Below are positions 3,798-48,481 of a DNA stretch of 64,000 bases, piece after piece. The position numbers and the translations under genes are program-made. Source of the DNA: Atractiella rhizophila (Eukaryota); NCBI GenBank assembly GCA_021432655.1, contig MU271184.1:62001-126000 (forward strand), in the 5' to 3' direction. Numbering within the stretch: position 1 is the first letter of the stretch; each line of letters starts with the position of its first letter. The notes under the pieces were generated by a model, which was given only the letters and a program-made list of their open reading frames with translations, did no database searches and had not been told where the DNA came from.

Positions 3798-5152
3798 ATG
3801 ACTGTGGATGCGAATGTAGAGGCTGAGGCGGAGGAGGAAGAGATGTATCGGATCATATACGACAAGCAGGAGAAGATCTATCGCATCCACATCTTCGCCA
3901 CAGACGGGAACGAGTCTCATTGGCCGAGCATGCAGGATGGCCCGTTTGAAAACATTACTCGGCCAAGCAGAAGACGTACGAAATGTGGCTGAAGAAGCTC
4001 GGCGTCTCCGTGGCAAAGCTGCTCGAGCTCGAGATGAGTGCATTCCTTCCTTCCCATCCGAGCGTCTCATGGTACTCATCGATTCTATTTGTTTCGTCCG
4101 GTCGGTTGGGTTGGGACGGAAAGATAGGAAGACATACTCGATCGCAGCTTCTCCCAGATACAACCTCTTCATCAAAACTCGAAGGAAGAGCGGGGACCTG
4201 ACCGATCCCACAAAAGTTCGATCAGACCGCTACCTGTACGGTCGTCCCAATGTGATCTATAGATCTCCCAACGAGTTTGTCGCGCACGCTTACTGGCTTC
4301 TTCAACCGCTCTCAGCCTCCAAAGACTGCGAATGCATATACTGCGGTCAGAAGACGGGACATCGGGAGTCGCAGAAGGTGGTCAACAAGGAGGTGTTGGG
4401 GATCAAGGATCCGGAGAGGAAGAGCGGATCGAAATGGGGAAAGATTGCTGTGCGGCTCAGGAGGGATGGAAAGCTCCTCCCCCGTGCCTGATAAGAGTAT
4501 TGTGGAAAGGTCAAAGACTTTCCAGGAGGGAAGGACCATCCCGAACCTGTCTAAGAGCCTGTCGAAGGATAGGGAGAAGGATTTGAGAGTGGCGGAAGGA
4601 ATGTTTAGGGAGTTGGAGCTCGTTTGGGTCAGGTTGGAGGAGCGGATCGGGAGCGAGAACAAGAGTGTAGACGGCGCAGAGGAACTCGCTATCACCCATT
4701 GGCCCACAGTCGTGTTCAAGAAAACGAGCAAGTTGACGTTTGCTCGCCAGAGAAGATCTCCCGCTGGAGTTCGCCGCCCAGATCCGGCCTGGATCCTTCA
4801 AGGTCTTCGTCCTCAAGATCCACTGTTTCTTCTACGAAACAGAATCGTCCGCCCGAGTCGCGGGCGAGCTCTCGGTCTTCGAAAGATCACCTCCTCAGCC
4901 TCGACGCCTTCACCCGTAGCCGACATCTCTCCCACCAAAGGATACTTCTTCCAACCCTTGTCGCCACCAGGCGGACAACACATCTTGACATCGAGTCCCT
5001 CGCATGACGATACTATATTCCCGCTCCTTCTTTCAGTCGAGGAAATCGAATCATCCTTGCCTCCCACAGGAAACGATGAAGGCAGAGCAGGTCAATTGTC
5101 TCGTGTTGCTACATTGGCAGGATTTCATATATTACAGACCTTACCCTTATAA
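3798..5152 (+). pseudogene. Clr2-like (cryptic loci regulator 2) silencing protein, apparently frameshifted or truncated
   Basis: Motifs TDG...WP, RSDRYLYGRPNVIYRSPNEFVAHAYWLL...CECIYC and FRELELVWV resemble the Clr2 N-terminal domain. They lie in different frames with no obvious intron at ~4430-4490. Confidence 0.75.
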
Positions 5153-27354: not shown

Positions 27355-28739
27355 CGCCTCTTCGTACGATGGAAACCAAGTCTGTGTAGACTTCGTCTGT
27401 AGATATCCTTTTTCAGGTGATGAGACGGAAGGGAGGCGCAGGTCAAAGTATTTCCATTCTTCTTCTTCCCAAGAAAGAATAATCGCTATCCCATCGTCTC
27501 TGCCGGGGGTGGATTGGGAGACTTCAAGAGGCTCTGAAACTGCAGAAATAATGACCTGGCTCCATATCTGTCTTCCACGTCCATTCTCCGCGCTGGTGCC
27601 AGTCTTTTCCAATTCTTCCAACTCAGGATGGATATCCACCATCCATCCAAACTGCCAATTAGGCGTTGTCTCAATCCCATCCACCCCCTTCTCTTCCAAT
27701 GCCATCCGATTTCGTTCGACCTCCTCTCAAGGGACCCATTGGAGATATTCTAATGGATTGTTGGGAGATGATGAGAGGAGAGAGTGACGTTCTTTGAGCA
27801 AGCGGGATAGGAAGTGGATAGGGAGGTGTGGCGGTGTGCAGAGAAGATAGGGAAGGAGGTCCTACCGGCGTAGGGGGCTGGGGGGGACTTGGACGGACTG
27901 GGGCTTAAGGCATGTGAGGACAGCTCACGATTTGGAAGAACACAGTACCATTTAAGCCTGCTGGAACTGAAAGGCAACAACCCGCCGTTACGTAATTAAT
28001 AATTTTGGCCTGATGATGTCGATGATGCACGGATGCACTGCCTGAGCCCAGTCGTCATCGGCCTCATCCATCACCCAAGATCATCGTCGCTTCTCTCAAC
28101 GACCATCGATGAATCTTTGAGAGGAAGATATGCATTGTGACAGGCATTGCCTGAGCCCTCCACTTGCACCTTGCAGGTAGGCCTGCAAAGTCCAGCCCGA
28201 AGCTAAAGCTTGGCAACCCGCAAGAGAAGCTCAAAGTTGGATTGGGTGTACGGGCTTGTTTGGCATCAGGAGCTCAGAAATACGGAGATGGAGTTTGGAG
28301 TTGTGAGCACGCATAAGAATCTAGCTGACAGCATCTTGCATTCATTTCTTCGATTAGGACTGAGATTTATTTTCTAACGGTCGCGACTGTATCTCTGTTC
28401 CTTACGTCACGTGCGATATGCAGTACCTCCATGAAGTGTAGTAAGAGATCAGTACGTTACTTTTCTATAAGGTATACATGAGTATGGCAAGCAACGGCAT
28501 GGAGATCAAGCTACTTCCGAAAGATTCGGCGACGCTGACGGCAACACGCAGCCGCAGTTTGCCTTTTCCCTACAGATTTCAATTCCTATTGATGACAATA
28601 TCTGTAAAGAACCAGCAAGGTCCCCAGGTCGGGTTTTGAAAAAAATGCACACCCTCTTTCCTTTCTGCACCCTTTTCCCTCATCTACTCCCTTTCCAACC
28701 CTTATCAACAAACCGCACAGACAGTGGCGCACTGGTTGA

Positions 28740-29830
28740 CAGATGAATGGCTGGAAACAGAAGCGAAAGGATCCATTAAAGATTCTGAGCTGCTCAAGGT
28801 CTGTTTTATTTCATTCCTTGCTTACAGCAGCCACTTCTAATCTTTGAATTTCAGATTCTCAAATCCCTTCCAATGGAGGAGAGGGAAAAGATCATGCAAG
28901 TCTGGCTTGCATCTCTCCCTCTTTCACAGACTGAGGACGACACTTCTCTCACAACCCCTTCCCCAAGTTCTGCCCACCGCCTCCTATCTTCTCAACTCCA
29001 GCCTATGTCAAGTCCCGGACTCAACAATGTTGATATTAAACCGAAGATTGTTTATGATCTAGATACTGACGATGAGAAGGAAGAGGAAGAACGGTCTTTC
29101 GCTCGTACATGCGTGGAGGAGGAATGCAGGTACAGCGGTTGTGATGGAGAGCTGGTGGTAAAGCTGTTTGGACCAGTGAGTGATACTTTATGTGCACGTT
29201 ATTGGGGTGAGAGGTTGCCACAGGGGAAACCAAGTCGACGAAGCCCCATTTACAACAATACCCAGTTTGTAGGTTGTCGCGGCTTCAATGACAGCCATGG
29301 ACAATATGTCCACAAGTTCAAACACATCACAGCTTGTCTCCGGACCTCATCGCCTTAGCCATCATTTGCAAGACCTGTGGAGTAAGTCCATCTCTTATTT
29401 GGGACTGTGTTGTTCAAACACCTGCAGGCAAGCGCCAGCGCCATCCCAGCTCACATCCTTTATCGCATACCTCTCTCTCTTGGCCAACGGAAGGTACACT
29501 TATTCCTTCTACTCCACCAATCATCCATGAAGCTCATAGCCTCGCAGATGCTCTGATGCCGGACTTTGGACTGAAGATTAAGAAGGATCTGATGCCTTTG
29601 TCACATCGCTACACACTTACCCCAAGCCCTTAACTTCTGCCTCACCATTACCCTCCAGCTCCTCATCCTCATCCGGTATCTTGTCGCCATTAGTGGAGAA
29701 AAAGAGGAAGAGGGATGATGGTCCAACGATAAAGGACCGATTGAATGTTTTGGAGATGAAGTTGGATAAGATTATGACAGTACTTGAGGGCAGAGTGCAA
29801 AGGAGTGGGAGTGTGCTGACGTAGATTGGT
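28740..29830 (+). pseudogene. Accessory Cys/His-rich ORF of the MULE
   Basis: CRYSGCDG..., FVGCRGFNDSHGQYVH and CKTC motifs; GT..AG intron ~28799-28855; frameshifts. Confidence 0.5.
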
Positions 29831-29904
29831 AGTTTAATGAAATATCATACTTTTATTTCAAAATGCACTTCACTCAAAGCTGCTCCGGCTTTGAAAGAGG
29901 AACC

Positions 29905-32900
29905 ATGTCTTTCTGCGCTCTGAATAAGCTCAGGCACAAACCAAAGACAAACTCAGCATAATCTATTCTCTATTCAATACCACAGTCGGAAGGCAATAGT
30001 CCCCAACCACGGTATCTGCTCTCCTTGATTCCAGGAGCAAGGAGGAACGAAGCTGCGACATGGAAGGCTTTGATGCTGAATGGTTTAGACAATTCAGAGA
30101 GGGTAATGCAGCCCTATTGTGGGTTTAATGATACTGATGGGTTGATAAAAGGTCTCAGACACTCAATAGAGGCTGACAGTGTAGTGGAAGGTCTTTTTGA
30201 TGCGTCAATGTCAGGTATGACATGCTGTCTTATAAGTAATGGGCTTTTAATAGATCACCATCCTCAGCAACCTCAGCCCGCCCTCAAATTCCTCCTCTTC
30301 CTATTACAGGAAAGCGTGGGCTGGAGCACATCTCCCCTCTCCGGCAATCCAATCCTCGAAGCATTCAACGTCCTCAGACCTCCTTGACCTCCTCTGCTCT
30401 ATCTAGCTCCAAAAATCAAACCATTTCCTTTATCTTCAATGGACTAGATCTTGTTGGTCAGGCTCAATCACTGGCTACACGCAAGATTCCTGACCACCTG
30501 CCTCCTCACATTTCATCTCAAGATCCTCGCGCCGCCCTTCAAACCAACTATTCTGTCTACTCAGGCTTCGATGGGTATCTTGTGGGAAAAGGAGCAGACT
30601 GGAGCTCTTTTCGAGCAACAGGGGACACCCGGTATCTAGGAAATAAGTTTGTTAGGCAGGGGACAATGCGAAATGTCAATTTGGTAGTTAAACCAAAGTG
30701 GCCTGGCCGTACTTGCCAAGTACAGAGGATGGATCAGTTGGTTTCCGGATCCACTTGAGAGGATTGAATGATATTAATGGTAAAGCAGCTGAGCCTGCAG
30801 ATGAGGTATGTTTAGTTTCTTTGACCATGCTACTGCACACTGAAGGCTTTATGACCTCGAAATAGCTTCAGGGTGTACACAAGGGCTCATCTGGTTCTCT
30901 CAAAGAGTCCGATTTAATATCTTATCCCTACCTTGACGATCAAGGTGTTTCTACAACTTCTCTACACAATACAGCTCCATTATGCCGCCGATATCCCCTT
31001 CTGTGTAGCTCGCATGGCTTCGGGAAACCCTGCTCTCTTTTTGATTGGGCACTTCTTAAGGAGTACACCTCTTACTTTCCAAATCTCAACGATACACATT
31101 CTCTCTTTCAACTCCGTGAAGATTATTTTGGCCGTACAATTCTTGACTGGAGTGTAGAAGAGCAGACGGCTAAGTATGTTGTCTGATTATATCCCTTGTC
31201 GTGCCTGATGAGCTGAATAGTTGGTATGGTGCCGTGCTGCTTAAGAAATATAAGAAGATCTGTCCTACATGCAACGAGAAGTTGATCATGGCGAAACTTG
31301 AGAGTGTGAGTTTATTCCTCAGTCACCAAACCTGAAGATAATATCATATATTCTTCCAGGGTGTTGATAGATTTGGCCATGAACATGAAATCCGATGTTC
31401 TGCAATCAAACCAGCTTCACAACTTCCAATCTGGATAAGCACAGCCGATTATGCAGCAGTTCGAGAAAGCAATCGGAATCACCTCAGGATAACACTTCCG
31501 CGCCGATGTCACTTAGAGACCATTGGGCATCTGCTTCTTTATGAAAAGATGCCTCCCAGCTTTGATCATTCACATTGGATGCACCGGCCAGGTACTTGTC
31601 CTTATTGGATGCCTACTAATTCTACTGCCCAGGATTGTTGTATGTAAAATCCACCATCAGAGGATAATATGTAATTGAGCGGGTCTAGTACTGCTGGAGC
31701 TTCTCCCTGACTCCAGTGTTCATTATCCCCAACTACATCGATCTCAAGATAATAGCCACTGTTCTGCGGTTATCCATTGTTGGGCACAGGGTCACAAGAT
31801 TGATGAAGAATGGTTGTCAAGTGGCCTCTACTTTATTCTTCCCATTGGAGCGCACAATCACCCACCCTCACCACCGATGAAAACTGGAACAGAACAAACA
31901 AACTTCATTCTTCGATGCATGGAATTGGTTCTTCAAAGCGAGGAGCGGCTTTCAGGTGGAAAGTTATTAAATAGTATGTCGATGTCATTACATAACAGAT
32001 TGTTATGGACTAACTACTTTACAGGCCGAATAATCAATAACTCTCTCGGAACTGGTTCAATTGCAGCCGTGGCTCCAGCTCTTACCAATCCGAACAAACT
32101 CAGGAAAATGGTACAAAGGGGGAAACATTTGATTCAACCATTGACCATACCTCGAGGTCCTTCTCGAACATCGGATGATTGGATGGAAGGTCAGTGCACT
32201 CTTCTTAGTCTTCTCAAAACCACTTAGTCCTAGGCATGGATGTAGAGATCCGTCACATGTGGAAAGAGGAACAACTTCAGAAAGATCCCAGAAGATTATT
32301 TATCCGAGATGTTCAACAAGACCCTGTTGATGGTTTCCGTTATTGTGTCTGCTTTACATCATTCCAAGCAGAAACACTTCTTCATGTTGAACTCCTGGCT
32401 ATCGATGTTACCTTCGAAGGTGTGGAACGGAGTACAAATCTAAGAGAATGGGAAGTGGCAGGAATGTATCATGCATCCCGTTAGTTGTCTTTCTATGCCC
32501 ATATGGTTTTCATAAGCAATTCCATTAGGTCACACTCTAGGGCATGGTTTTTTGGACCGAGAACATTCAGAAGGATATCAAAGGGTTGCAACCTCATTTT
32601 TTCGGAGCATCGAAGCTGTCACAAAGAAGAAGATCCCTTGGCTCTGCTTCAACAAATTCCAGAACGGCCCTATCATCATCTGCGATTTACATCAGGGCCA
32701 AGCAAATGGGATGCTGGGGGATTACTTTCGACATCTTATCCTTGATCGGTATCCAACTGAACGCCTACCGGGCTGGAAGCTGACTCCATCTTGGCCACCT
32801 TCTACAGCAGATACAATCTCTCATACATCCTTAACATGTGAGACTCATGTTAACCGGTAAGACTTCTCTATCTACCAGTATAGCCATATTCTGATATCCA

Positions 32901-34416
32901 TTTAGGAATCTCCAATCTATGGTTTCTTCACTCGCTACAGATCCTACTATTCAAGCGAATTTTCAAGTTCTTTACAATGATTCTCATCAGCCTGATTTGA
33001 AGCGACGCCAATATCTTGTGTATGAGGATCTGATCAGCGCTGCTCCCATCAAGGCAAGGACTATAGGACAATTTATGAAACAGTTCATGAATTGCTTCTC
33101 CGAATTAGATTTTCGTTTGTGGTATGTGGTTGCGCAAGAGCTAGCAGCTGACAACACCATTCTAAAAGGTTTATTTTATTCTGCTTTGCTTTGTCAAGCT
33201 TACAAATAGAGTATATTTGCAGATTGGTTGACAAATAAGGATTCAATTGGCTGGTTCTGGACATCTTCAGTTCCAGCTTTATCTCCTATCCCTCGGAATA
33301 TCTGGGATCAACTCGCACATTCATCAAATTTAGTTGAAGGAGCTCATGCCTATCAATATGCTCGGGTTGGGGTAGGATTACCACTGCCGCAGGCCATCAT
33401 CAAGTATGTGATTTGATTCAAAGTGGTGACTTGTCAGTGATCAGACCATTAGACGGAGGAGTATAGATTTTCGAGATGCTGCAAATCTACAGTTGGCTGA
33501 GGCACAGTCAATCTCAATTCACGCACCCTCTCAGAACTCTTTTATGTCTAGAGCCGTAAATACTGATCAACGACAGCAACGAATTCGGCAAACATGCAGT
33601 CAAAAGACAAAGAATCGATCTAGATCTCACTTCCCATCTTTGATTCATCAGAACGTCGCGGTGGTTGTCGAATCACTGCAAAAAATAAAGAGAAATATTA
33701 ACTCCCAATATCAAAACACAACTAAAAAGGCAAATGCGGATCTGAAGAGACAACTCAAGGATGATTTAGACTGTGCCACAAGACTCTGGAACCAATGGAC
33801 AGCTATTCAGCAGCAAATTGTTCCACTTTCGCAGGCGACCCTGCCTGTTCCAGATTTTGAAACAGTACAGGGTATGCTAACTTCGGCATGGTCAAGTTTA
33901 ACTCAGGAAATACATGACCGACCATTACTTCTGATACGGGTTGAGAAAGAATCAGATTTGAAGGCGCTGTTGCATAACAAGGTCAGTCTTTATATATGCT
34001 TGCACAATCAAGCTTATCTGTACTGCAGTTTTTTTACTTCACTTCAACTGTCTTCAATAGTTGTGTCAGTCAACAGTCCGATAGTTCTACAAGGCCACCT
34101 GAACCTTTGGTACGTTGTTTGATTGAATTTATAAGACATGGCTTCACATCACATCAAGGTTCAATCTCACCCCCACTATTCTACCGAATCAATGCTTGAT
34201 ATTGTCGACATGGTGCATGGTCTTGCGAGAAAGCAAGTTTCTACCAGGGGCACACCTGAGCCACCAGTACGTATTTCAACTTCATTTCATCATAAATACT
34301 CATGCTCAAGATTTCTAGTCGCCTATTGTGGCTGATTTTGATAACATTTTCATGGACTTTCCCTTCATACTGTTTCCAAGGATAGAAGACTGAATGAAAA
34401 TGCAATGAATAATTAA
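29905..34416 (+). pseudogene. MULE/Mutator-type DDE transposase, many introns, some lesions
   Basis: Zn-finger C...GAHNHP, first Asp in AIDVTF (~32401), EWEV, second Asp in IICDLHQGQA (~32680), CETHVNR (CxxH, ~32836), and W...SSNLVEGAHA (Glu, ~33335). Confidence 0.82.
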
Positions 34417-34598
34417 ATAGCTATATCCTAAACAGCAAATCAGACTTAGGATTGTTCAACTTCTTTGATAATTCAAAAGAGGTTAATACTGTCTACCGAT
34501 CCCATTCATATCATGATGTGGCCCAAATTCAGCTTTCCTCTCTTGATACCTTGTCATGGTGTTAGAGACTTAAGTAAAGTAGAGCTTAGAAAGTGTGC

Positions 34599-36111
34599 CT
34601 ACTCTTTTTGAATCCTTGCTTGAGTGTCTTTATGAGAGAACCACACCAGGCCACTTCGTTCTCCTTCAAATTTGCTGACTCAGTGCACAATAACTCCTCC
34701 CTTCAACCCAACAATGTTGAACTTATAAGAATTCCCTCCAACCTCTGCAAATAAATAACCATCTCTGAATTCTCCAAACACACTCATCCAGTCAAACCCC
34801 TCCATTCTATTACTTGCATCACAATGAGGTTGAATAGACGCATTGGCAATGATACCGAGGGAGAGTCGGGAGGAGCGGCGGGAAGGGAAGAAGGTTGAAA
34901 CCATTGGATAGAGTTTTGAGGCGAGCCAGGCAAGTTCATGATAATGAGAGTAAGTGGCAGGTGCTGTAACTTGGAACGAGGATTCAATGATTTGAATGAA
35001 CGGCGTGAGATTTTGATAGAGCCGGTGCACATAATTGAGGCTGCAACTTGATTAGGACGTAGGACGTAGAAAAGAATGAGGATCACTTACTTAATTGCGG
35101 ATTTTCTGGTATCAGCAGAAACCAGCACCTCGTCACTTGGATGAGCAAGAGCATTCCACTGGTTGACCCTTCTCTTTCATATGCTCAACTTCCTTTTGAT
35201 CCCATCGAGAATCTGAACTTTTTGGAGGAGTAACTGTTGTCAATGAAAGAAACTCGGAAACTGCAGTGGAGGCATCTGCAAAAACTTTATTTGCAAATTG
35301 AGGACCAAAGGGAATATGGAGTTTATCTTTCAAAAAAATAAGCAATATATGTCCATCACTACTGACAAACTTTACGTCTGTTTCAATAAATTCTAAAGGA
35401 TGTTGTTCATGCATGGTTTTATTTTGTCTAATTTTCTTCAATGTTTTTAAAGACGAATCACAAAGTTGCTGGAGCGTGAAAGGAATGATAACAGTGCGAA
35501 TTTGAAAATCAATAAGCTTATTCCAGTTACGGACATATCTTGCATTTCCTTCATTCAACTCCCACTCTGTTGTTGGCAAAGCATTGATTGCTTTGCGAAG
35601 TCGTTCCTCCCAGAAGCTGTCGCTGGCTCCATGTTCCAGCCATTGAGCTTTGGTTGGATCTTCATATTCAGGAAATTTCGGCTAGATCCATTGTTATTAG
35701 TATCAGGACAGAAGCAAAAAAGAAATAGAATAGGGTAGGCAGAAACCTTTTGCGGTCAACAGCCACTTTCGGAGCCAAACCTGTAAGTCCAAGATGCTAA
35801 AGGGAGTTCCAGCGATAGCATCTTGTCTACAGTTATTAGTTGTTTGATGGAGGAGTTCCAGTCCATCAAACAACTAACATGGTAGCGAAAGTATGTGTTT
35901 GACTGCAAAAGGATGTAAACCCTTTTACACAAAAAGTCACACTCCCCACCCCTTTTTATCATCAAGAATGTAAAGACTTACTTGGTGCCAAGGTGCCATA
36001 TTACTCTGCAAGACTCAGCACATTCTTGTCGCGTAGAAAGGCAAGGTAAGCTGACGTGTTGTTGCGAAGGATTGGGCGGGAATGTGCTCCTCCTGAAATG
36101 ACCGGAGTCAT
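34599..36111 (-). pseudogene. TET/JBP-family 2OG-Fe(II) dioxygenase, disrupted
   Basis: IIANASIQPHCDASN (HxD at ~34818-34826), GFDWMSVFGEFRDGYL, then IVH*VSKFEGERSGLVWFSH (distal His, 2OG-binding Arg, aromatic) with an in-frame TGA at 34680-34682. Upstream WNALAHP..VSAD, phase-consistent intron ~35092-35041, frame break near 35160. Confidence 0.82.
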
Positions 36112-36623
36112 TTGTGATTGCAAAGTGGAGGGCTGTGGGTGAGAGGAGAGGTGGTGTGAGCTAGAATTGATGCTGTCGAAGCTCGGTTGAAGAGGAAATG
36201 GAGGGAAGAATCAAGGAGAGAACAGTTGGTTTTTAGATGCAGAAGCACGAAGCTTTTGCCTTCCGCTTCCACTGCATTACAGTTGACTCTCTGTGTTGCC
36301 ACCCTTGGCCGCCCTGGGTTTCAAAACATCTGGGCTATTCTTGGCAGCCAGTGGTGGCATGGCGCGCGGCATTTAGCTTGTTTCTATCTGTTCTGTGCAC
36401 CCTTCGGCGCAGCTTCGGGTGCTACTTACCATTGTATACCTTACAGAAAAGGTACATACTCGTAAGAGATTGGAAGCGCCACCTTTAGTTATTATTTTTG
36501 TTTATGTTCTGTTATCTCGGTCTTGCCCAAAACGAAGGTCATTAAATATCTGTCCTCCTACCATACCAACTACAGGTCTGGGCAGGGAGATCCTTTGTTA
36601 TCGTAGCATACTGAGCTGATTGC

Positions 36624-38441
36624 TTGGTGGGCACTATGGGAACTGCCTCGTGCCTATCGTCAGACATGTATCGAAATGATTTGAAGAAAGTAGGAGACCG
36701 TGCGAAGGCTAGAGGGATAGAACTGGAGCTAGGGGAGTTCTTTGTGAGAGACGAGAAGGGGAGAGAGAGAGATACGGGAGCGGAGGAACAGACGGAAGAA
36801 AGAGAGAATGAAGGAAGGAAGGTGGAACATCCATTCTCACCGGGTCACTTTGATGAAGAAAGGTCTGAGTTACCACCTGAAAGCCCAAATGAAATCGTTG
36901 AATGACAGATGGGGCACTCTCATGGTCGTACGAAGGCAGGGCTACTGGCTCAGACAGTGATTTCGAAAATTCTCATGACCCTTTTAATTCTCATTCTCAT
37001 TCGTTATTTTCCAAAAATTCAGTTTTTATCATCCAACAAAACCATCACCAAAGAGGAACAGTCTCTCATTCCTTCATGAATTCAGACGATAGGAAAGCAG
37101 ACATTATTTTAATACAAGAACCTCCCACCACTCTTCCAGACAGCGGAAGCCTTATTATATATCCAGGATACAAATGTATTGCCTCAAAAAAAGTGAAAAC
37201 ATCAGACTCTAGGTCAGAAGTTTCACGATCAATTATCCTCATCAACAGAAATTCTTTCTCGGGCGAAACCTTTGTTGAACTTCCGAACCAATATTATGAC
37301 ATCTCCGCTGTCCTTTTAATGTTCCCAGGAGGGAAGAGATTTCTAATCATTAATGTGTATAACGCTGGGGGGAACTCCAAGACAATAGATGACATAGCTA
37401 CCCTCATTGAAGAATCCAAAGTAACTGGTCTTTTGAGAGAAGAAGATCTAATATTTGTGGGTGGTGATTTTAACTTGCATCACAGGGAGTGGAACCCACC
37501 TGGTACACTTGCTCAGATGGCAATGCAGACTACCTATTAGAGGTATTCGAAGAACTGGGACTCTCCTTAAGATCTCAACCTGGTATTCCTACATACATAA
37601 ATGCCATGGGCCACGAGACGACGATTGATCTCATATTCACTACCGAACGAACCAATGAGTACAATACATGCTGCCTTACTGACCGAGGGGGAGACAGTCA
37701 CAATTCGGACCACTACAAGCTGGTGACTAGGTTGTCCTTGATTCCACCCGCCTTCGATCCAAATCCCCGTTACAACTACCAAAGGCCAACTGGGAAGCGG
37801 TAAGGGAGTTTCTACAGAAGTCTGATAAATTAGCAAACTTCCCGAGGGATAGGGACGAACTGGCTACACAAGAGGATATCGACAAAGGGGTGGAACTCCT
37901 CATGGCTGTTCTACTGGAGGCCATGGCACTACTCCCCAGAATGTCAAGCAACCAACCGACAAAGAGATGGTGGACCGAACAACTCGCAGAGAAAAGGAAA
38001 ACAGTCAACAAGCTTAGAAATCACTTTTTGAGCAAGCAAAGGAATGGGAACCAGGAAGCAAAAGAGGAAGCACGATCTCTCTGGCGTAAAGCTGCTAACC
38101 AGTTTCACGCTGATATCAGAACAGCGAAGACACAACACTTCGAGGATTTCCTGGCAGACCTGGACCAGCACTCTATTTGGACTGCCCATCGGTATGGAAA
38201 GAGGGAGGACCGGTGTCGAGACATACCTCCCCTGCGGAAGGATGCAACTGATGACCGCCCCAACAACGCCGTGTCCTCCCCAGCAGACAAAGCCTCTCTT
38301 CTCCACGCTAACTTTAACCCCATTGCTCAAAGCTGCGATCTTTCCGACATCCCCTGCATCCAATACTCACCTCCTTTCCCATCCCATCCGCTTAAGATAG
38401 AGGAAATTGATGAAGCTATAGACAGAATCAAGATATCTTAA
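36624..38441 (+). mobile_element. Tad1-like LINE fragment: probable end of ORF1 plus ORF2 AP-endonuclease and linker, truncated before RT
   Basis: Motifs QQN, IILIQEP, INVYN, GGDFNLHH..W, TTIDL, SDH and WWT; frameshifts at ~37500 and ~37790. Confidence 0.88.
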
Positions 38442-40486
38442 ACATTGAATTCACAGAAGGATGATCTGCGAACAGAGTCAATCACACTCTTCCATCTCAT
38501 TACCCCAGTATCATTGAAACATGGCACTCCTTTCCACCTCTCCATCCTTCCCTCTTTCCTACCTCCATCAATTCACATGCTCCGGATCACATTTGTCTTG
38601 CCTCTTGAATTCTGGACGGAGTCTTATGGACCGTCATAATCATCCTACTTCTCTCTGGGAGGTCTCAAAAATAAAGTCGAACCCGACGGTGCAGTGATTC
38701 TTTGCATTGCATTGGAGGAGGAAAGTATTGTGGTAACTTTTGAGGATTCCAAACATCATGCACCTGTGGATTTGGACGACCTGGACAAATCCTTTGGACA
38801 AATCCTTTCTCTCATCTTTGAGTTCTTATCATTCAATAAAGACCAAAGTCCCATCAATAGCCTTGATCACTATAAAGAACGTCTTGTTTCCTTCCAGTGA
38901 CTTTCTGCTGTCTGTCAGCTCTGGAAGTCTGTTTCAGTCCCCTATTTTCGTCGTTATATTTCTATGAAGGAGAGGCATGCTCGTTTGAAACAATATTCTT
39001 ATGTTATACGTTTATAGACGGACCTCTAGTTTAAAAGAAGGTTTTATAATGATGACAGTGCAGAGATGGCAAAAGATATCATTAGGGCTTGCCGAATGTT
39101 ACATTCGTAACAATGGATGCATTTTGGAATGAAGAGGAGGCAAAAATTGTGTTGCATGTGATTGAGGGCCTGACGAAGTTGGATGAGGTAATCTTCAACA
39201 GGCAAGGTTCGAGAAAGTGGAAGAAGGATGAGGTCGAGAATTTATATGGAGGATGAGTGACAGGATCAGAGTCTTCCGTGCTTACGACGTGGAGGACTCT
39301 GGCCTGTCAACACCTCCGGGTCATCTGACCTCAAACACCTAGAGCTTCACCCGTATCCGCCTCTCCCATCACTCTCCCTCCCACATGCTCTCATGTATTT
39401 GGGTCTCTCCAATCTGTGTTCCCTCCCTCCGTCTCACGTTCATGTCTGCCGCCTCTTCTATGATATCTCAACATCACGCTCGGCCGCTACTCATCTGATG
39501 GAAAGACCTCCATCCTACCCACTCTGTTTGACCTATCGCACCTCGAACATCTCGCTACACTTGTCCTTGATGGCGGTGAGGAACCTTCAAGCCTCATTTC
39601 CCCCTGTTCTTCCACACCCTCAGAAATGCTGAAGCGATAGGTGGCATAGATGTTCATTACTATGTGGTGGACTGGGAATTCTCAGGGTTTGTATTCACAG
39701 GCTGGAGGAGGGGTGGATATGGTGGATGTGGCTGAAAAGGTGAAGAAGATAAGATGGGGCAATTTGAGGGTTCAGCTATTCTTTGGAGGGTGGCTTGAGG
39801 AAGAGATATGCAAGGGTTGGAGTATGTTGAGTAAGTTTGGTGTGAGCGAGAAGGATAATTTAAGATGGGTTGGGAGTGAGGAGGAGGACGCTGGAGATAC
39901 TCAGTTATTACTCACATTCTGGAGAAGACACAAGAAGAAGGTGCGCAGTTTGTAACGAGCGCCCAGGGACAATGGTGACAACTTTGGTTTTTTTGCTACA
40001 AAAGTGCAATATCATTCATAGATTTGAGAAATTTAAGGAACCATGACAACATATGTTTAGCTTGATTGTTTAGATGTTATTGTCAATTGGAATAGCTTAT
40101 TGGGTAACGATTATGAGAGCAATCAATACAGAAAGTAGGGCTAGGGATGAAGGTGGGACCAACATCCACAGGAGAGGGCAGAACCATCAGAGTCCAACAA
40201 AGTGGGACTCCAAAGCGAAATGAAGACGAAACACTCACAGTGTAGCTTCTCCCTTCTTGATATGTTCCTCTCAGACACTTCCAACAGCTCTTTGGCAGGT
40301 GCTCTAAGTGGTTTATAAGTGAAGGAATTGGTCGGGATTGTCCATCGCATCGTGCAGAGCTGTCATCTGCACTTCAGCCGTAGACTGAGGTTCTTTCTTG
40401 TGTTTTTTTCTATTCATTGCAATGTTGAGTCCTTATGTGGAATAAATTAGGATGGAATGTGGTCTTGGTGGCATGTTTTTGGTCGC

Positions 40487-40586
40487 TGTACGTGATTCTT
40501 AGTGGAAGGTTGTACGAGTTGCGAGTGGTGGTGGTGGTGGTGGTTGATCTCTATTGTTGCCTTTGTACGTACATTTAGCTACCACA
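40487..40586. repeat. ~100-bp solo-LTR-like repeat, copy 1
   Basis: TG...CA with a (GGT)n tract; homologous to 47563-47658 (inverted) and 48482-48584. Confidence 0.8.
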
Positions 40587-41125
40587 CGTGCTGACTCATG
40601 GAGAGCAAAGTCATTAGGGGTAAGAAGACTGGTCAGGAGAAACGAAATGATTAAATCCTTGAAAAACCGAACAGATACACGTAAAACCAAATGAACTATT
40701 AAAATTGAACTGAGAGTATTAAAGGCCTTTATCCTCTCTTCTCACATGGAAATGTTTCAGTCGTTGGGTGTGAAAATGGCCACCAAGGGCAACCCCTATG
40801 AGTGTCTCAAGGATCCATGATTATGCATTATCAGATTCCTCGCATTCCCCGTTCTCCTGCTTTCTTTTCCCAAACATGTTCACCTTCTTGCACTTGCGAA
40901 GTGAAAGGACATCAAATGATACCAAGACAAGTGGGGCTAGTTTGAGTATCGGGTGCAGGAGGAAATTTCGACTCAAGGGACCAAAGTGTTGGCATTCTGG
41001 GCATGAAAGCACAAATTCTGTGAGGTCTGCTTGTACAGTTGGCCAGTAGTAGCGTTGTTTGATGTGCCAGAGTGTCAGGTCTCGCCCTCCATGTCATTGA
41101 TTCTCATGAGTTGCTATGACTAGGC

Positions 41126-41605
41126 TAGAGATGCCAACAAGTAGGACTCACGAGTACGGGTACCCTTACTCACAAGTATCGATCAGCTTAAAGCCTGATT
41201 TGTAACTTGTTGTGATCTTTGACACAGGTACCCTTGTGCTAACTTAGACTCTACATGTCAACATAATTTTACAGTTTAGGCACATTAGTTTATATAGATG
41301 ACTTACTATACATTACTTATGGCTTAAACACCACTATTACTTGTATCTCAGAGCCAGATAGAGCCATTTTGAATGTGAAAAAGATCAAAAATTGATACAA
41401 AACTCTCTTTAACTCTTTCAAACGAATACCCTATGGGTACCTGCTATTTCAGGACATATGCTCATGAGTACTCTTAGGTACTTAGCAGGGAACACAAATG
41501 GATACCCCTGATGAAAATTTACCCTCTGTAGCTGATTTGTAACTTGTTGTGCATGGGTACCTGTGGCACAAATACCCATGAGTACCATACTCATTGACAT
41601 CTCTA
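41126..41605. mobile_element. hAT-type MITE (480 bp)
   Basis: TIRs TAGAGATGCCAA / TTGACATCTCTA with GGGTACC-type subterminal repeats; no matching 8-bp TSD. Confidence 0.7.
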
Positions 41606-43837
41606 TCCCCTTGCAGTCCTAACTGGCATAGGTCCCTTAGCCCAAATCGGTGTGAACAAGCTCAAGAACTTGGGAGCTTCTGCTGGTAGACAATTTTCGA
41701 AATGGATGGTGATATTGTTTTCCTTTGATGCAACTTTCACACATCTCAGGAAATCCTGTCTTGCTATCCATATGCATATCTTTAACCAGATCCTTTTGTA
41801 TAACCAAATCCAGTCTATCTTTCATAACCTTGTCCTCTATTGTTGCTGTGAATCAAATCTTTCTCTTTTTCGAGAACTTTATAAAGCTCTCGTGGATAAC
41901 AATTACATATTGTTTTAGGGAGAAGACTGAGAGGAGATCAATTTCAACTTCGGGACGTAGAGAACATTTCTGATAACTATTGGCTTTGTAGGTTGTTTGT
42001 TCGAACGGAAATATATTGATCCTTTTCTTTCGGAGTAGATGATGGTTCCATCTGCAAGTTTGATCAGAATGTGATGGTTCTGGTAATCATTCTGAATCCA
42101 ATGGCGATGAGGCGTCATAGGAGCTGTGGCTCCAGTGTCTACCGTCTATCTTACATCAGCCTTCTCCATCGCTCCATTCGCAAGCAACGCTCATACTCTG
42201 GCAGTCTTTCCAGCCTTCACCACCTTCAATTTTTCTTTATTTTCTTCCTTGGGGTCACCAGATGATGGTTCCTCCTTTGAACCACTAGCAACTTTTGCCT
42301 TTGCCATCCTTTTCTTTTCCCCTGATTCCTTTTTGAAGGTATCTGGGGCCTTCTTTCTGAAATGACACTCTGCTTCAGTTTGATTATTGCATCCACAGAA
42401 TGTGCAACCGATGCTTGTAGGAGGTTTATTCGATATAGTCGTAGGCAGCTTCTTCAAGGATGGCTGAACATGCATAGCTATTTCTGACTTCGCTTCTGAC
42501 CTCTTCTTTTCTCCTTCCTCTTTCCTAAACACATCTTCCACCTCTGTGATCGTAAGGTCTTCAGAACTAATTCGAAGAGTTGTGAGAAAGACTTGATATT
42601 CATCGTATGGAAGGGAACGGAGGAGGGTCATGATCGCAAGTTCATTATCCATCTTTGCCAAGGTATAACCAGTTGGACGAAGCTTTTGAATGAGACTGAT
42701 TTGTTCGTTGACTTTCGTAATGAGTTGTTCCATTGACATCTCTGCCATCTTGCGAATATCGAGAAGATCATCAAAAGCATTGAATCAAGCATCGCGTTCA
42801 GGCTTGACATGGATTTTTTTTAGCTTTTCCTAAACAAGCTTCAGATCTGTGAGGTCAGTGATGTAGTGTCGCTGACTATTCTCAATTGAAAGACGTAGAT
42901 ATCCCATGGCTGCTTCTTTTCACTCATCCCAATCTGTCTGTCTCTTCTCCACCTCAAGTTGCTTCTGATAATCGATACTCATAGGTTTTTCAGGAAGAGA
43001 ATGGTCTACAGGACGAGTTTCTGTCCCAAGAATGATTCTACCTGCTCGTTTCTTCTGGAGGAAGGCAAAGATTTCTTCAGACCATATTGCGTAGTTTGTA
43101 TCATTGAGTTTTTCAGAGACGAAGGTGAAAGCATAAGATATCTTGAGACTAATCTGTGGTTTATTGATAGGTTGTTTGGAATTAGATATACAGTTAGTAA
43201 CAACCTTAACAAGAACTCCAAAGTTGAGGGTTACTGCACTATTATAGGATGATTGATGTCCTTGCTTTGTGATAAAGCAGTCCAAAAGACTGTCTGACAA
43301 TATCACAAGAGCGTACTGTAAACAGAGGTCCCAAGAAGAAAGCCTATGGACTTCTTCCATGACTTGGTACGTAGCCTGGTGCAGAGACGTGTTTACAGTT
43401 TCCAAATGCAGCACTCCAACACAACTCCTTTATCCTTATCAAGATTTGATCACTCACTGTTGATAGTACCTTCAGCTCCTGGTCAGAATACGCCGATCCT
43501 GCTAGTCTATGGTATGCACCGATCCCCTACTGAAAATAATCTAATCTCCAACCACTGCTCCTTGTTGATAAGGTCCAAAGTCTGTTGTTAGGTGCGGGTG
43601 TAGGTGCGAGATAAGGGTTCTCTCCCGGCTAGAGTGTTGGGCTCGTAACCTGTTGAGACTAGGATTCTTCCTATCACACTGGGAAGCATACATTGCAGAA
43701 GAAACTCACCTAGGATTCTTCCTATCACATTGGAAAGCGTGAAGGGAAAAAATCCTTGTGAGGGGGTATATGTGTATTTTACATTGCGGGGCACTCATGT
43801 GACCATAGTTCTCATGGTTTGTCACTTATCTCCAACA
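41606..43837 (-). mobile_element. Copia LTR retrotransposon 5' half (LTR, PBS, gag, protease, integrase start), decayed
   Basis: LTR 43651-43837 (TGTTG..CAACA); PBS GGTTACGAGCCC at 43639-43650; motifs KLNDTNYAIW, CTFCGCNNQTEAEC, DTGAT, NVLYVPKL, CESCIKGKQ, LELVHTDL. Confidence 0.92.
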
Positions 43838-44813
43838 TTTCATACAACAGGCTGATAACGTTGTGCCTTGGTACTCTTTCGCGCAATTGGTCTGTACTCT
43901 GGTTCTGTTAGATGCAACAACCACTTGCATATGGGGTGAGGTGGGGGCCAGAAATCTTCGTCCAGTAGGTTGACTGTCAGTTGATGAGAACATGAACGGA
44001 ACAAAGGGTACATGTAGAGGATTGTAACAAAGAAGTGTGGGAATCTTCATAGATTGAAGACTGGTGGATAAGAAGAAATATTTTATTCTGAGGCTTATAC
44101 TTTTGTACGATTATTCGACACTCTGCTCCTGAATATTGTATGCTCGTTTCATGAAACGGTGATTTGGGGGTTTCATTTGATACTGAACTCTTGATAACCA
44201 GTGAAGTTAAACAATGCAAAAACCACAGTTATCAGGTACAACAGGAGCTCATGAACATACATGAACTTGCTGTCTGATAAGTTTATTGCATACAATTTGA
44301 CTTCGGGTGCCTTCACATACTGTGTTGACGCCAGAACCTTAACAGATCCAGATCCTTAACACCACATATTAATGTCCCTCAAAATTCGCTCCATTCCTTA
44401 GATATTCTGGATTCAAGATCTTCGTACCTGTGTGCAGATTTTGTCTCCAAACAGCGAGACCATTGCTTGTAATCTCTCAGAGATATCAATGAAAATGTAG
44501 TGTTTTATAAATCTGTGTTTTTCAACTACCTATTTGCAATTACTGGATTTTTTCTTCGCAATCTCAAGAATTAGGTCAAGTCTTTCATATTCCAAACAAG
44601 TTGCTGAAAGACAGCCTGTTGAAAGCAATTCAACTTGAGGAGGCGAAGTGCGCAAATTAGAGTTACAGTGCGTAGCATGACACACTTTTGGGTCACGTGC
44701 AAGCGGAACAACTGTGCAGTCTGTTTGAATGTCTTTGATTGTCTTCTTTCACGCAACGTGACCTTCCGTCTTTCCCTCACACTTTCCACCATCCTCCAAA
44801 TGCCTCTTGGAAG

Positions 44814-45893
44814 ATGAAAGGTGTGACAGGTGCTCAGGAGGTAGCTGCCCAGAAAGAAAAGGATTTTGTTGAGGCCGTACAAATTTATTTCGAAAGGAGA
44901 GAGGAGGCTAAGAGGACAAATAACCCGAAGTGTATCATCTCCTTCAGAGAGCTATCGCACCAGTACTCCTATCCAAATGGCATGGGAGGGATTGTTTACA
45001 TGAATTATGGTCCACTGAGGCTGTGGTGTCAAGGAGGCTTAAGTTGCACCGAAAGTCATGAGTATCAGAGGCTGCTCAGTGCTGGAGAAGAAGATGCCCT
45101 TGTCAGCTGGCTTCGATGGGTTGGTGATTCTGGCCTACCTCTTCACCGGAGAGCTATGGGATTTCTCTGCCTCCGCTTTTTATCTTCACCGGCAAGCGTT
45201 TTATGAAGAACTGGCTAGAGGGTTTGACAGAAGCACAAAAGAATGGCATTTTGTACTCCTTTTTGGTCTTCAGCTTAAGTGCATTCATGTATGCTCAGAA
45301 TATCAGAGAATGGATGGACGGATGAGGTGCTAGGCTATCTATGGTTCACACTGGTTTATGTCCCTTTTGTCAAAAGTCGACCTGATCCAAAGCGTCCTTG
45401 TCTTCTCATCCTTGACGGCCACGATTCCCATGCATTGGCACTCATTATTCGCTATGTCTGGGAAAACCTTCGCGACATTGTCAATATAATTTGTCTTCCT
45501 CCCCATACAACCCACAAATTGCAACCTCTCGACGTTGGTGTGTTTGGGCCGATTGGAAAAGCTTGGAGCGATGTGACGGATGATATGTTGGAGGATGGTC
45601 ATGAAGTCTCCAAGAGAAATCTTATCAAGAGGTACTTACAGTGTCGTGATGAAGGAATGAAGGCTTCAACAATTGTCAGTGCTTGGGCAGCTACCAGACT
45701 CTTAGTCCATGACCACTCTGGAAGGGAATTTGTGAGTCGAAATCACTTTGCGGAAGCCGACTTTGCTCCTGCCCATCAAACCTCGTCTAGAACACAGTTG
45801 CCAGATTGTATTCATCCGGACCTCGAACTTGCCCTCACCAGCTCATCCAGCCATTCTGACAACGATGACAACTCTGATCACCATCCAATCTAG
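44814..45893 (+). mobile_element. pogo/Fot1-like (Tc1/mariner, DDE_1) transposase, internally deleted
   Basis: CENP-B-like LLSAGEEDALVSW, ENGWTD, LLILDGHDSH and LPPHTTHKLQPLDVGVFGP; the first catalytic Asp motif is not seen. Confidence 0.88.
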
Positions 45894-46949
45894 AGGAACC
45901 TCCCACGATTGAGCATGGATTCTATCTCAACAACCTGCCTCCCTTACGAACAAGCAACTACTCCTGTTACACTTCCGGCCTGCCCCCTACATCGATCTGA
46001 ACCTCAAGCCAGCATTCCAGCACCCGACCCGCCACAACCTCCACTGACCGATCCCCCAGCTTGGAGCTTTCTAACAGTAACCCTGCACACTCCCATCAAT
46101 CCGGCTCACTTCTACCCAAAAAAACCTCGTACGGTCTTCCGTGATCAACACGGTAAGATCATCCAGCTATCCGTCAAAAGTGACTCCAGGCTGCTCTATG
46201 GAGCCTTGTCAGCTTTGGATAACGGACGCGCGAGGACTCAGTTTACTTACAGGACTCCTGAGACTCTTTCTCCCATCATGCAGGACACTTCAAGTTGGCA
46301 CTAAACACACAAAACTCAGGAACAGTCCAATATCTTGCTCTCTTTGACAGTGTGAGAGAGTTGAAGTGAGTGTTCACCAATGCAAACAAGGCTGGGTTCC
46401 CAGAAGCTTCTACATTCATTAAAGTTCTCTCAAGACTCTATCTCACATCCCGAAGGTGTATCAACGCTCTCAGGCTTCCCAGTACTATGTATTGATGTAT
46501 CAAATTAACGGTGGACATGCTGACATTCAGCACCCAATAGCTAAAAATAGTGAAGTGAAAGGTGCGAACTTTGAAGAGACACAAAAAAAAAACAGAATAT
46601 ACCCCAACCTTCCAGGTGATAGAAGAAGGAAGAAGGTGCTGACCGACAGAGAGAGGAAGGCTGCAGAATCAGCCACAATCGCATATGATTGGGATAAGAT
46701 ATACGGAGAGCACATTGATGGCATAGATAATTTGTTACATGATCGATCATCTGGATTTCTGAAGATGCTGAGTGGTTTGTTTAAGAGGTGGTTTCTTGTC
46801 AGTGAAGGAGAACAAATCAGGTTAATTGATGTGTGCATAGAACGACTACAATATCTCAGGAAAACAGTTTCCTGGATTAATGTGAAATGGCTGAGAGCCC
46901 ACATTTTCATCAGGATGCTGTTTTTGTTGGAGGCAGGGTCGTATCCTGG

Positions 46950-47880
46950 AGTGCCTACTGTTAGTAGCCAAACAAGATACCCTCTTGTCGGTGGCAAATC
47001 ATATCTGTTGACATTATAGGTCCTCTACCAATGAGCAGCTGATATAATGCTACCTTGGTTGTGATTGATCGTCTCTCTAAACACACACACTACATTCCCT
47101 CTATACACACAATGGACTCTGCAGGTTTGGCTCACATTTTTTGAGATCATGTTTGGAAACTCCATGGCCTGCCTGAAGAAATCATATTAGACAGAGGGTA
47201 AGAGTTTGTTAGGAGATTTATGATGGATCTGTACTCATTTCTTGGGATTTGTTGGACACCATTGACTGCCTATCACCCTCAGACAGATGAGCAGACTGAA
47301 AGAGTAAATCAAGACCCTGAGGCATTTTTTGTGTATTTTTGTCAACTATGGCCAAGATGATTGGGCTCAATGGGCCTTGCTCGCTAAGCTCTCCTACAAC
47401 AATCAGATACATTCTTCCACACAATACTCTCACTTTATGCTTGATTGTGGCCAACATCTCCGACTGCACTTTGAATCAGTAACATACATGACATTTCCAG
47501 CAGCAGACCAGTTTGTAAAGGATATGAAGGAGGCACAGGCACAGGCACAGTCAGTATTGAGGTGTGGTAGCTAAATGTACATATGAGGGCAAAAATAAAG
47601 GTCAATCACCACCACCACCACTCGCAACTCGTACAAACTCTCGCTAAGAACCGCTACAGAGAAAGGCAGCTGACGAGATGGCAAAGTTTTATGACCGGAA
47701 GAGATCACCTGCAACTTCCTACTACAATGGTGATTTAGTCTAGCTCAGTGCAAAGAATATCACAACAATGAGACCTGTCAAGAAACTCTCAGACAAGTGG
47801 TATGGACCTTTCAAGATTTTAAAGAAAATTGGTGACTGGAACGTCCAACTTAATCTCCCTGCACACTGGAGGATATATCT
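46950..47880 (+). mobile_element. Ty3/Gypsy integrase fragment
   Basis: Motifs ISVDIIGPLP, VVIDRLSK, HGLPEEIILDRG, TAYHPQTDEQTERVNQ and KKLSDKWYGPFKI; stops and frameshifts. Confidence 0.9.
47563..47658. repeat. 96-bp solo-LTR-like repeat, copy 2, inserted in the Gypsy integrase
   Basis: TGTGG...CTACA with flanks GAGG/GAGA; removal restores the integrase frame (SVLRKAADEMAKFYD). Confidence 0.8.
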
Positions 47881-48481
47881 AAGACCACGCCAAAGGTGCC
47901 ATTAATGACTTCCGCCACAAAATCCTACTCTCAAAGTGCCACCTTTTTCCAATTCGTCATTCTCACCGCACTCAAGGCAGTCACAACAACCCCACAAGAG
48001 TTAATGTTGTATGCTCCATTGCAAAGGATCTTTAACGCCCCTGGTGCCTTCTCCAATGGATAATGCAAGTTGGGCTAGAGAAGGCACTGGAGCATCTTTA
48101 ATGGTGGCAATATGTACATTGGTATATCTCCCCTGTGAAAACTATGGTCATGGCTTATAGGTCTTCCTTCCACATAAATACTTTACACCATACCCTAGCA
48201 CAATGCACATTTAATACTTCGACGCAAACCACAATACACTGTTGTGAACCCAAGCTCCTAGATCTCCTAGAGGCTTCCCATGGTCAGTAAGAAAGCGACA
48301 GTGATCGACCTTGTCTTTGGATATTTTCAGTACCTTTCAGATCCAGAAAATAGGAGGGTATTGTCAGGATCGCCCCCAGATTGCCTATTTTAGCCTATTT
48401 AGAGTCGTGGGCTCAATATATGTTTGTGTAGCTTTATTTTTCACATTTCTGTTTCCCCATCTCTTTGCCCTACTATCATGT

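Follow-up and report, generated by a model that had tools for sequence, protein, structure and literature searches.

TET/JBP dioxygenases are, to our knowledge, the only enzymes that actively oxidise 5-methylcytosine (5mC), and DNA transposons of fungi that carry their genes were reportedly described by Iyer et al. in 2014. Fungal DNA transposons have captured TET/JBP genes repeatedly, which is interpreted as a counter-defence against silencing by methylation. In this study, we analyzed a 64,000-nt stretch of Atractiella rhizophila DNA (contig MU271184.1), which is called the window below and in which all positions are counted. The segment 28450-36461 of the window is probably one copy of a young, multi-copy family of cut-and-paste transposons that combines a DDE transposase with a TET/JBP gene in an Atractiella-type fungus (Pucciniomycotina). 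The closest described systems are other TET-bearing transposons. The available text of Kojima 2025 (PMC12730594) lists them from Dileera, hAT7, IS3EU, PHISTA/Harbinger, EnSpm, ESTA, Helitron, Kyakuja, Zisupton and Plavaka, and gives their target-site duplications, in the same order, as 8, 7, 6, 2 (TA), 3, 2 (TA), none given, 7, 8 and 2-3 bp. Pucciniomycotina is one of three host lineages of TET-positive transposons in that list, with all listed hosts belonging to Pucciniales. A role in counteracting silencing is a published hypothesis for such elements, and CcTET, the enzyme of Coprinopsis cinerea, oxidises 5mC and N6-methyladenine (6mA) (PMC12730594). In the searched text of the same paper, MuDR comes up in the introduction alone, in connection with other cargo; the text contains no Mutator-type carrier and no 9-bp duplication, and the words Atractiella, Mutator and MULE do not occur in it. 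Full-text literature searches returned no description of a TET-bearing Mutator element among the titles and abstracts listed, Repbase being outside their scope. About ten lineages that show the general phenomenon have already been published, and what is new here is another carrier lineage and another host class, in the form of a dead copy.

MuDR of maize makes a 9-bp duplication and has the convergent genes mudrA and mudrB. Mutyl of Yarrowia lipolytica, a fungal Mutator-like element (MULE), has a 9-10-bp duplication, 22-bp inverted ends and an antisense second open reading frame (ORF) (PMC6446971). The element described here shares with both the long duplication, the inverted ends, and a transposase gene with a second gene on the other strand; it differs from them in that the second gene is of the TET/JBP dioxygenase type and the transposase has no match to PF10551 or PF00872. 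With the TET-positive fungal transposons it has in common that it is a DDE cut-and-paste element with a TET/JBP gene beside the transposase, in a basidiomycete host and with the same proposed counter-silencing role, whereas the 9-bp duplication, the Mutator-like character and the Atractiella host set it apart. Kyakuja, Dileera and Zisupton (KDZ) elements are similar in that they, too, are fungal DNA transposons of large size, which often carry additional genes, TET/JBP among them, and have Cys-rich regions on the N-terminal side of the DDE core. They are dissimilar in that the element here has no PF18758 or CxC match, while KDZ duplications are 7 or 8 bp and Kyakuja has no inverted ends (PMC12730594).

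Boundaries and copy number of the element

An earlier note on this DNA, made by sequence reading, had proposed a complete Mutator-like transposon of 8012 bp, bounded by a perfect 9-bp duplication and imperfect inverted ends of 29 bp. The boundaries and the size held. The inverted ends at 28451-28478 and 36433-36460 pair over 28 nt with 24 matches (86% complementary), or, when the first base (C/CG) is included, over 29 nt with a 1-nt indel, the termini of the element are CAGTA...TACTCG, and the unit between the duplications is 8012 bp. We scanned the window for perfect direct repeats of any 9-mer, spaced 0.5-20 kb, that had at least 21/28 inverted matches no more than 2 nt inside them. One pair was found in the real window (28441/36462), and none in 100 first-order Markov random windows. 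Because the scan result was unique in the window and absent from all random windows, the element boundaries are not due to chance.

Read evidence was taken from contigs of two public DNA runs (X1 and X2; depths are given below as X1 / X2). Both came from one sample, possibly the source of the assembly itself, and therefore they serve as a check of the assembly and of copy number, not as a second strain. The contig across the left junction (27765-28515) had a depth of 88 / 116 and zero differences from the window. Element-internal contigs had a depth of 277-382 / 692-812, which is 3-7 times that of the junction contig, and diverged from the window copy by about 1-3%, or by 6% in one case. At the right end, the summed depth fell from 474 / 1314 in the bin ending at 36436 to 188 / 323 in the bin ending at 36767. 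Since the interior contigs are several times as deep as the flank, the element is a family of several copies, roughly 4 to 15.

One contig matched the window from 28451 inward, while its upstream 255 letters were unrelated to the window. This contig comes from a further insertion of the element and places the left end with a precision of one base. The claim that the unit is mobile was borne out by the duplication with its inverted ends, by this second insertion with a different left flank and by an interior depth above that of the flank. The depth was 296-487 / 816-1280 in the bins of the dioxygenase gene (34451-35774) and 309-734 / 801-2154 in the transposase part. The equal depth of the two parts indicated that both genes travel together in most copies, and the dioxygenase is thus not a one-off capture in this copy, in agreement with the earlier note. 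No flank-to-flank (empty-site) contig was listed among the contigs of the two runs, no subterminal repeats were found near either end, and the window contained neither a further copy of the element nor a second TET gene.

One X2 contig (depth 379) joins 29270 to 34768 and skips 5497 nt, with only 29 letters on one side of the joint. It might be an internal-deletion derivative of the element, and it is too weak to use.

A TET/JBP-like dioxygenase gene on the minus strand

Reading of the minus strand in three frames gave a long exon (35133-35681), then a short piece in another frame (...WNALAHPSDEVLVSADTRKSAI), a GT-AG intron of 44-50 nt, and an exon at 34683-35051. The last exon ends in ...GGVIVH followed by a TGA, and the same frame runs onward as VSKFEGERSGLVWF...RIQKE to the stop at 34599-34601. 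We searched the core of this product against PDB sequences by phmmer (expectation value, E, up to 10), with X in place of the TGA. Two PDB sequences matched, and both were CcTET (8jkk, E 0.0011; 7vpn/7w5p, E 0.0012). In the alignment, HCD corresponds to His326 and Asp328 of CcTET, a following Asp to Asp337, the His before the stop to the distal iron ligand, X to Gly377, and the Arg of GER to the Arg in the GER motif of CcTET; the residue numbers are in agreement with those of PMC12730594. The putative enzyme thus resembles CcTET, its only PDB match, at HxD, Asp337, the distal His and the Arg; it differs from CcTET in having Asn at Gly331, a stop right after the distal His and a frameshift upstream.

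The 123-residue exon was also compared in the ESM Atlas, where its neighbours were basidiomycete clusters (scores 0.94-0.95, 194-195 shared features) and 23 of 30 were in sets with PF12851 in 13-19% of their members. These results agree with the earlier identification of the gene as TET/JBP-like, which we regard as well supported but weakly scored. The motifs quoted for it stood in part: HCD and FGEFRDG are present, but the third motif (H...G.R...F) had been read across the in-frame TGA. Apart from this stop, the gene keeps its catalytic residues and an open frame over about 330 codons. An Asp337 equivalent is typical of the Agaricomycete 'AG' type of TET (PMC12730594). The dioxygenase resembles this type in its phmmer match to CcTET and in keeping the Asp337 equivalent, and we would assign it there.

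The N-terminal exon had no meaningful match among PDB sequences. A search for homologous proteins with the dioxygenase exon confirmed 0 of 171 candidates in the longer-length range, and a metagenome scan with it gave 84 pattern matches, 0 of which were confirmed. A perfect 16-nt inverted repeat with a 10-nt loop was noticed at 35836-35877, in the 5' part of the gene.

The transposase gene and its superfamily

The plus strand of the element carries a transposase gene with many short introns. By tblastn with two database proteins, P0001 and P0002, its exons were followed from 28724 to 32481, and GT-AG threading gave a spliced frame of 1141 codons at 30073-34122 with 11 introns of 44-108 nt. The whole gene, from 28724 to about 34000, has at least a dozen introns, with lengths of 44-60 nt. 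These introns and the gene ends rest on the threading and on two database models that disagree in places, both mutually and with the threading, and the exons at 32234-33403 were spliced by hand reading.

The database relatives of the transposase were three hypothetical proteins, all from Atractiella rhizophila. P0001 (773 residues) is 85% identical over the exon with the candidate zinc finger and 98.7% over the exon with the first candidate catalytic Asp (D1 exon), P0002 (453 residues) is 89% identical to P0001, and P0003 (197 residues) is 34% identical over its first 140 residues only (window 28733-29280). A search with P0001 among 1.84 billion protein representatives gave 2 matches only, both from Atractiella rhizophila. 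In searches for homologous proteins in the longer-length range, the finger exon gave 1 match (P0001) among 1281 candidates, and the exon with the second candidate Asp and the CxxH motif (D2 exon) had 0 of 17 candidates confirmed; a metagenome scan with the D2 exon gave 272 pattern matches and 0 confirmed. Judged from these searches, the transposase family appears to be an orphan restricted to this lineage. Both P0003 and the N-termini of the transposase have W-L-x-D-x-W-L-E and L-P-x-E-x-R, followed by a Cys-rich stretch, and P0003 may represent a sister family or a reusable N-terminal module.

The transposase motifs quoted in the earlier note (HNHP finger, IDVTF, ICD, CxxH and SNxxExxH) all exist in the element. 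Their order in the hand-made splice model is D..D..CxxH..W..E, with Trp and Glu arranged as W-(10)-E. In MULEs, duplications are 8-11 bp and inverted ends 14-500 bp long (PMC6446971), and the 9-bp duplication and 28-nt ends of the element are inside both ranges. The motif (C/D)xxH is described 15-45 residues after the second Asp, with a Trp before the Glu (PMC5499845, PMC3942029), and many MULEs have an N-terminal zinc-finger DNA-binding domain of the WRKY-GCM1 type (PMC1702500). The finger exon here had no Pfam match, and its AlphaFold model (predicted local distance difference test, pLDDT, 31.9) was too poor for a fold search. Among the Atlas neighbours of the D2 exon, 25 of 30 were in PF10551 (MULE) sets with a score of 0.92, and none was KDZ or hAT. 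From the 9-bp duplication, the short inverted ends, the motif order, the Cys/His finger pattern and the Atlas neighbours, we consider that the transposase is most probably a Mutator (MULE) enzyme, from a very divergent branch of this superfamily that is confined to one lineage.

Pfam and NCBIfam scans of the transposase were made with single exons or ORF pieces, so that a weak match to a whole domain could escape. Pfam on 15 + 5 + 6 pieces of the element and on P0001 gave no credible family; the best hit was Linker_histone (E 0.073), with similar noise. As positive controls, PF02992 matched the ORF at 58288-59433 and PF03184 that at 45279-45890, and 7 of the 39 ORFs in the window gave a family. 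Exon-sized pieces are thus recognisable by Pfam, because these two families were matched elsewhere in the window.

Three other affiliations gained no support. PF18758, CxC, PF02992 and PF05699 (hATC) had no match on any exon of the element at E up to 10. KDZ membership was ruled against by the missing PF18758 and CxC matches and by the 9-bp duplication (7-8 bp in KDZ), and hAT by the same duplication (8 bp, range 5-8 bp, in hAT) and the missing PF05699 match. CMCT (EnSpm/CACTA, Plavaka, ESTA) was ruled against by the missing PF02992 match, the 9-bp duplication and termini that are not CA..TG. As the earlier note had said, fungal TET/JBP carriers elsewhere do include KDZ and Plavaka; PF02992 matches another element of the window, not this one.

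Damage to the two genes

The earlier note had called the transposon complete, which proved incorrect: both genes are disabled in this copy. The transposase has GTG in place of the ATG start and a frameshifting deletion at 29615, the dioxygenase has a 23-nt deletion and the TGA, and this copy is dead. The deletion at 29615 splits ...SHRYT and PYPKPLTS into two frames, and the window frame stops after ...SHRYTLTPSP. P0001 reads ...SHRYTPYPKPLTS in a single frame over this position, where the window needs two. Other copies have other indels, for example +7 at 30505, and decay seems to affect the entire family.

In the dioxygenase gene, when the 23 nt were restored at 35157, the frames ...KEKGQPVE and WNALAHPS joined as one open frame, ...KEKGQPVGAIFTGLWNALAHPSDEV.... 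The TGA at 34680-82 cannot be spliced out, as the sole surrounding GT...AG spans 14 nt. The coding frame is broken here between the distal His and the Arg that binds 2-oxoglutarate. Beyond the TGA, the frame remains open for 26 codons and keeps the conserved G-E-R and the hydrophobic pattern. The same TGA was found in an X2 contig of depth 792, which matches the window over 34369-34838 save for a 3-nt insertion. Because this contig is of high depth, the TGA is common to several copies. It is possible that the TGA came from CGA by a CpG-type change (C-TGA from C-CGA); we infer this only tentatively, because CcTET has Gly at that position.

CpG mutation footprint

We compared the window with higher-depth contigs over 28640-36022, and the footprint was drawn from 40 of the 331 single-letter differences. 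Among 17 transitions with T/A in the window against C/G in the other copies, 12 were clean changes of CpG to TpG/CpA, or 13 when a site that has a second change next to it is included. With 11.7% of the C/G positions of the element located in CpG, the binomial P for this T/A-ward excess is about 2e-8. In the reverse direction (window C/G), 2 of 10 were in CpG (Fisher P 0.018). The observed/expected ratio of CpG is 0.53 in the element versus 0.68 in the rest of the window. The ratio of the stretch 40001-48000 is lower still, 0.47.

The private changes of this copy appear to be the footprint of deaminated 5mC, which suggests that the element is or was methylated and is unprotected. Because the private transitions are mostly CpG losses, the copy would have decayed mainly through deamination of 5mC, and these changes point away from a present-day role in countering methylation. 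Such a role for the family is doubtful, because both genes are disabled in this copy and the TGA is common to several copies. The dioxygenase module is probably no longer working in the family, since several copies are truncated before the 2-oxoglutarate-binding Arg and this copy is scarred by methylation.

Interpretation and alternative explanations

Under the reading that we favour, that of a young family of TET-carrying DDE transposons, the two convergent genes would be transcribed inward from the two ends, in a layout like that of MuDR and Mutyl. The DDE transposase would bind the ends, excise the element and insert it with 9-bp staggered cuts of the target. An intact CcTET-like Fe(II)/2-oxoglutarate dioxygenase would oxidise 5mC on the element or on nearby DNA and so oppose silencing by methylation; this role is suggested by the biochemistry of CcTET and by the hypothesis published for other TET-bearing transposons. 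Since the TGA is common to several copies, the family would have continued to spread, or at any rate to persist, while its dioxygenase was truncated.

A number of results weigh against this reading. The earlier note had called the transposase a MULE and had expected profile matches to MULE and Tet_JBP, and none to KDZ, in the spliced proteins. The duplication length, the motif order and the Atlas lead fit a MULE, and no KDZ or Plavaka match appeared, but none of the exons matched PF10551 or PF00872 at E up to 10, nor did the dioxygenase pieces match Tet_JBP (PF12851). NCBIfam on 6 pieces of the element gave only ribosomal L25 noise, and the D1 and D2 exons had no meaningful match among PDB sequences. 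The Atlas neighbours of the D2 exon shared 147-149 of 256 features with it, below the 170 typical of true family members. The CxxH motif lies at +51, just outside the published 15-45 residues, with the catalytic roles being assumed, and the CxxH and Trp motifs do not discriminate, because hAT has them too (PMC5499845). The Asp-to-Glu spacing of 183 residues is our own count on a hand-made splice model. For the dioxygenase, the match to CcTET is weak (22 bits over about 80 residues), and the single-sequence AlphaFold model of the core, with X at the stop, was too poor for a fold search (pLDDT 38.4). In the reads, run X1 had no contig with the 23-nt stretch; as X2 has it and X1 does not, the copies probably include both forms. 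That several copies share the TGA speaks against a present need for the enzyme.

Part of this evidence would fit a transposase that is not Mutator, belonging instead to an undescribed DDE lineage or to a very divergent relative of hAT or KDZ that makes 9-bp duplications; the element would still be a TET-carrying transposon. No MULE profile matched any exon, the three database relatives come from a single species, the Atlas similarity is below the typical family level, the CxxH and Trp motifs occur also in hAT, and the Asp-to-Glu spacing is long. In hAT transposases, the second Asp and the Glu are separated by a very long insertion. Published duplications, however, are 8 bp in hAT and Zisupton/Dileera, 7 bp in Kyakuja and hAT7, and 2-5 bp in CMCT (PMC12730594), and no hATC, KDZ_trans or CxC domain was found on the exons. 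Moreover, the transposase has no C(2)C + H(3-4)H pair between the second Asp and the Glu, as in CMCT, and the Atlas neighbours of the D2 exon favoured MULE sets without any from KDZ or hAT. We regard a non-Mutator transposase as unlikely.

The shared stop also raises the question of whether the dioxygenase served the element at all. It may be an inert passenger, that is, a host or foreign TET gene captured once in Pack-MULE fashion, which has been decaying and from which the element never drew any use. Three findings are in line with this explanation: a contig of depth 792, representing several copies, contains the TGA that follows the catalytic His; this copy has an additional 23-nt deletion; and the CpG decay of this copy leaves no visible protection. 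Against it, the frame is otherwise open with the catalytic residues kept over the length given above, and the gene has a mudrB-like convergent position with its own upstream region beside the right end. TET frames are mostly intact in about ten other transposon lineages (PMC12730594), which suggests selection for the benefit of the element in general. A passenger gene seems to us improbable to much the same degree as a transposase from outside Mutator. The opposite case, in which the family dioxygenase is functional, would need the TGA to be an artefact of assembly or contig building or to be read through, with only this copy damaged. The residues after the TGA are in frame, with G-E-R and the hydrophobic pattern kept over 26 codons, and all sequence evidence comes from one sample, as this case would allow. 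The TGA, however, appears in the window as well as in a contig built independently from the reads, which has 0 other letters; it cannot be spliced out, and read-through at this stop has no support here. We consider a functional family enzyme very unlikely.

Returning to the TET-carrying transposon family with a Mutator-like transposase, we tentatively suggest, as a possibility that falls short of being probable, that this is the first Mutator transposon (or the first of an unnamed superfamily with 9-bp duplications) carrying TET/JBP, and the first TET/JBP carrier from Atractiellomycetes. Its dioxygenase would be nearer to the Agaricomycete CcTET type than to the described TETs of rusts, and it would represent a demethylase knocked out by a stop, in copies that gain CpG-to-TpG decay. 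If so, the element would be another independent capture of TET, or a transfer across subphyla, and a natural loss-of-function experiment in which the enzyme is linked to shielding against mutation driven by methylation. With a Mutator-like carrier in an early-branching class of Pucciniomycotina, the pattern of repeated capture would gain one superfamily and one host class, and the TET gene would be in the slot that MuDR-type elements use for a helper gene. Given the combination of a truncated dioxygenase and a CpG-deamination footprint, an inexpensive comparison could show whether an element is protected by the TET that it carries when this is intact. The gain is incremental, as the phenomenon is in print and the enzyme here is not intact.

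Features of the element and other features in the window

The features of the element are collected in Table 1.

Table 1. Positions in the window of the features of the element, with the evidence for each.
Feature	Position	Strand	Evidence
Left target-site duplication, GTAAGAGAT	28441-28449	none	Identical to 36462-36470; sole pair in the window with inverted ends immediately inside
Left terminal inverted repeat	28450-28478	+	28451-28478 pairs with 36433-36460; contig of another copy diverges exactly before 28451
Transposase gene, many short introns, disabled	28724-34122	+	tblastn of P0001/P0002 and GT-AG threading; 3' end between 33981 and 34122
GTG instead of the ATG start of relatives	28724-28726	+	VAHWLTDEW versus MAHWLTDEW of P0001; contigs read A (depth 301 / 768)
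1-nt deletion, frameshift (-1)	29615-29616	+	C after 29615 in all contigs there (depth 382 / 812)
Second Cys/His cluster, CPTC ... HEHEIRC	31261-31398	+	Sequence pattern only
Candidate zinc finger, HCSAVIHC-x27-HNH (C-x5-C ... H-x-H)	31757-31867	+	Sequence pattern only
AHNHPP motif	31850-31867	+	Sequence reading
First candidate catalytic Asp, in LLAIDVTF (AIDVTF 32398-32415)	32404-32406	+	Exon 98.7% identical to P0001
Second candidate catalytic Asp, in PIIICD (IIICD 32672-32686)	32684-32686	+	77 residues after the first Asp
CETH, (C/D)xxH motif	32837-32848	+	51 residues after the second Asp
Trp (33303-33305) and candidate catalytic Glu (33336-33338), in NIWDQLAHSSNLVEGAH	33303-33338	+	Glu 183 residues after the second Asp
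SNLVEGAH	33324-33347	+	Sequence reading
TET/JBP-like dioxygenase gene, disabled, convergent with the transposase	34599-35999	-	Frame reading, CcTET alignment, Atlas neighbours
Arg of GER, located after the stop (contacts 2-oxoglutarate in the family)	34656-34658	-	Aligned to Arg in GER of CcTET
Distal iron-ligand His (34683-34685), then in-frame TGA (34680-34682)	34680-34685	-	TGA at the position of Gly377 of CcTET
FGEFRDG motif	34758-34778	-	Sequence reading
Asp aligned to Asp337 of CcTET	34791-34793	-	PDB alignment
HxD iron ligands (HCD)	34818-34826	-	Aligned to His326 and Asp328 of CcTET
23-nt loss, shifts the dioxygenase frame	35157-35158	-	X2 contig (depth 939) has the 23 nt
Candidate start of the dioxygenase, MAPWHQ	35982-35999	-	Possible 5' end
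Right terminal inverted repeat	36433-36461	-	Inverted-repeat pairing; summed depth drops alongside
Right target-site duplication, GTAAGAGAT	36462-36470	none	Perfect 9-bp match to the left one

The element is located in a repeat-rich stretch. On its left side, 27500-27830 has a depth of 685 / 1599, and right of the insertion, 36902-38441 on the plus strand is a piece of a non-LTR (long terminal repeat) retrotransposon (Exo_endo_phos_2, E 4.8e-6), repeated by read depth. The ORF at 58288-59433 on the minus strand matches Transposase_21 (tnp2, CACTA/Plavaka-type; E 3.7e-7), and tblastn with the dioxygenase exons of the element found no TET-like sequence near it.

Other pieces of mobile elements are a pogo-type DDE_1 transposase at 45279-45890 on the plus strand (E 6e-14) and a copia-type gag at 42194-42784 on the minus strand (E 6.5e-6). 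Near the start of the window, a Clr2 transcription-silencing domain was found at 3820-4488 on the plus strand (E 1.7e-13), and 5281-7218 on the minus strand contains a fungal-type protein kinase (Pkinase_fungal) in two pieces.

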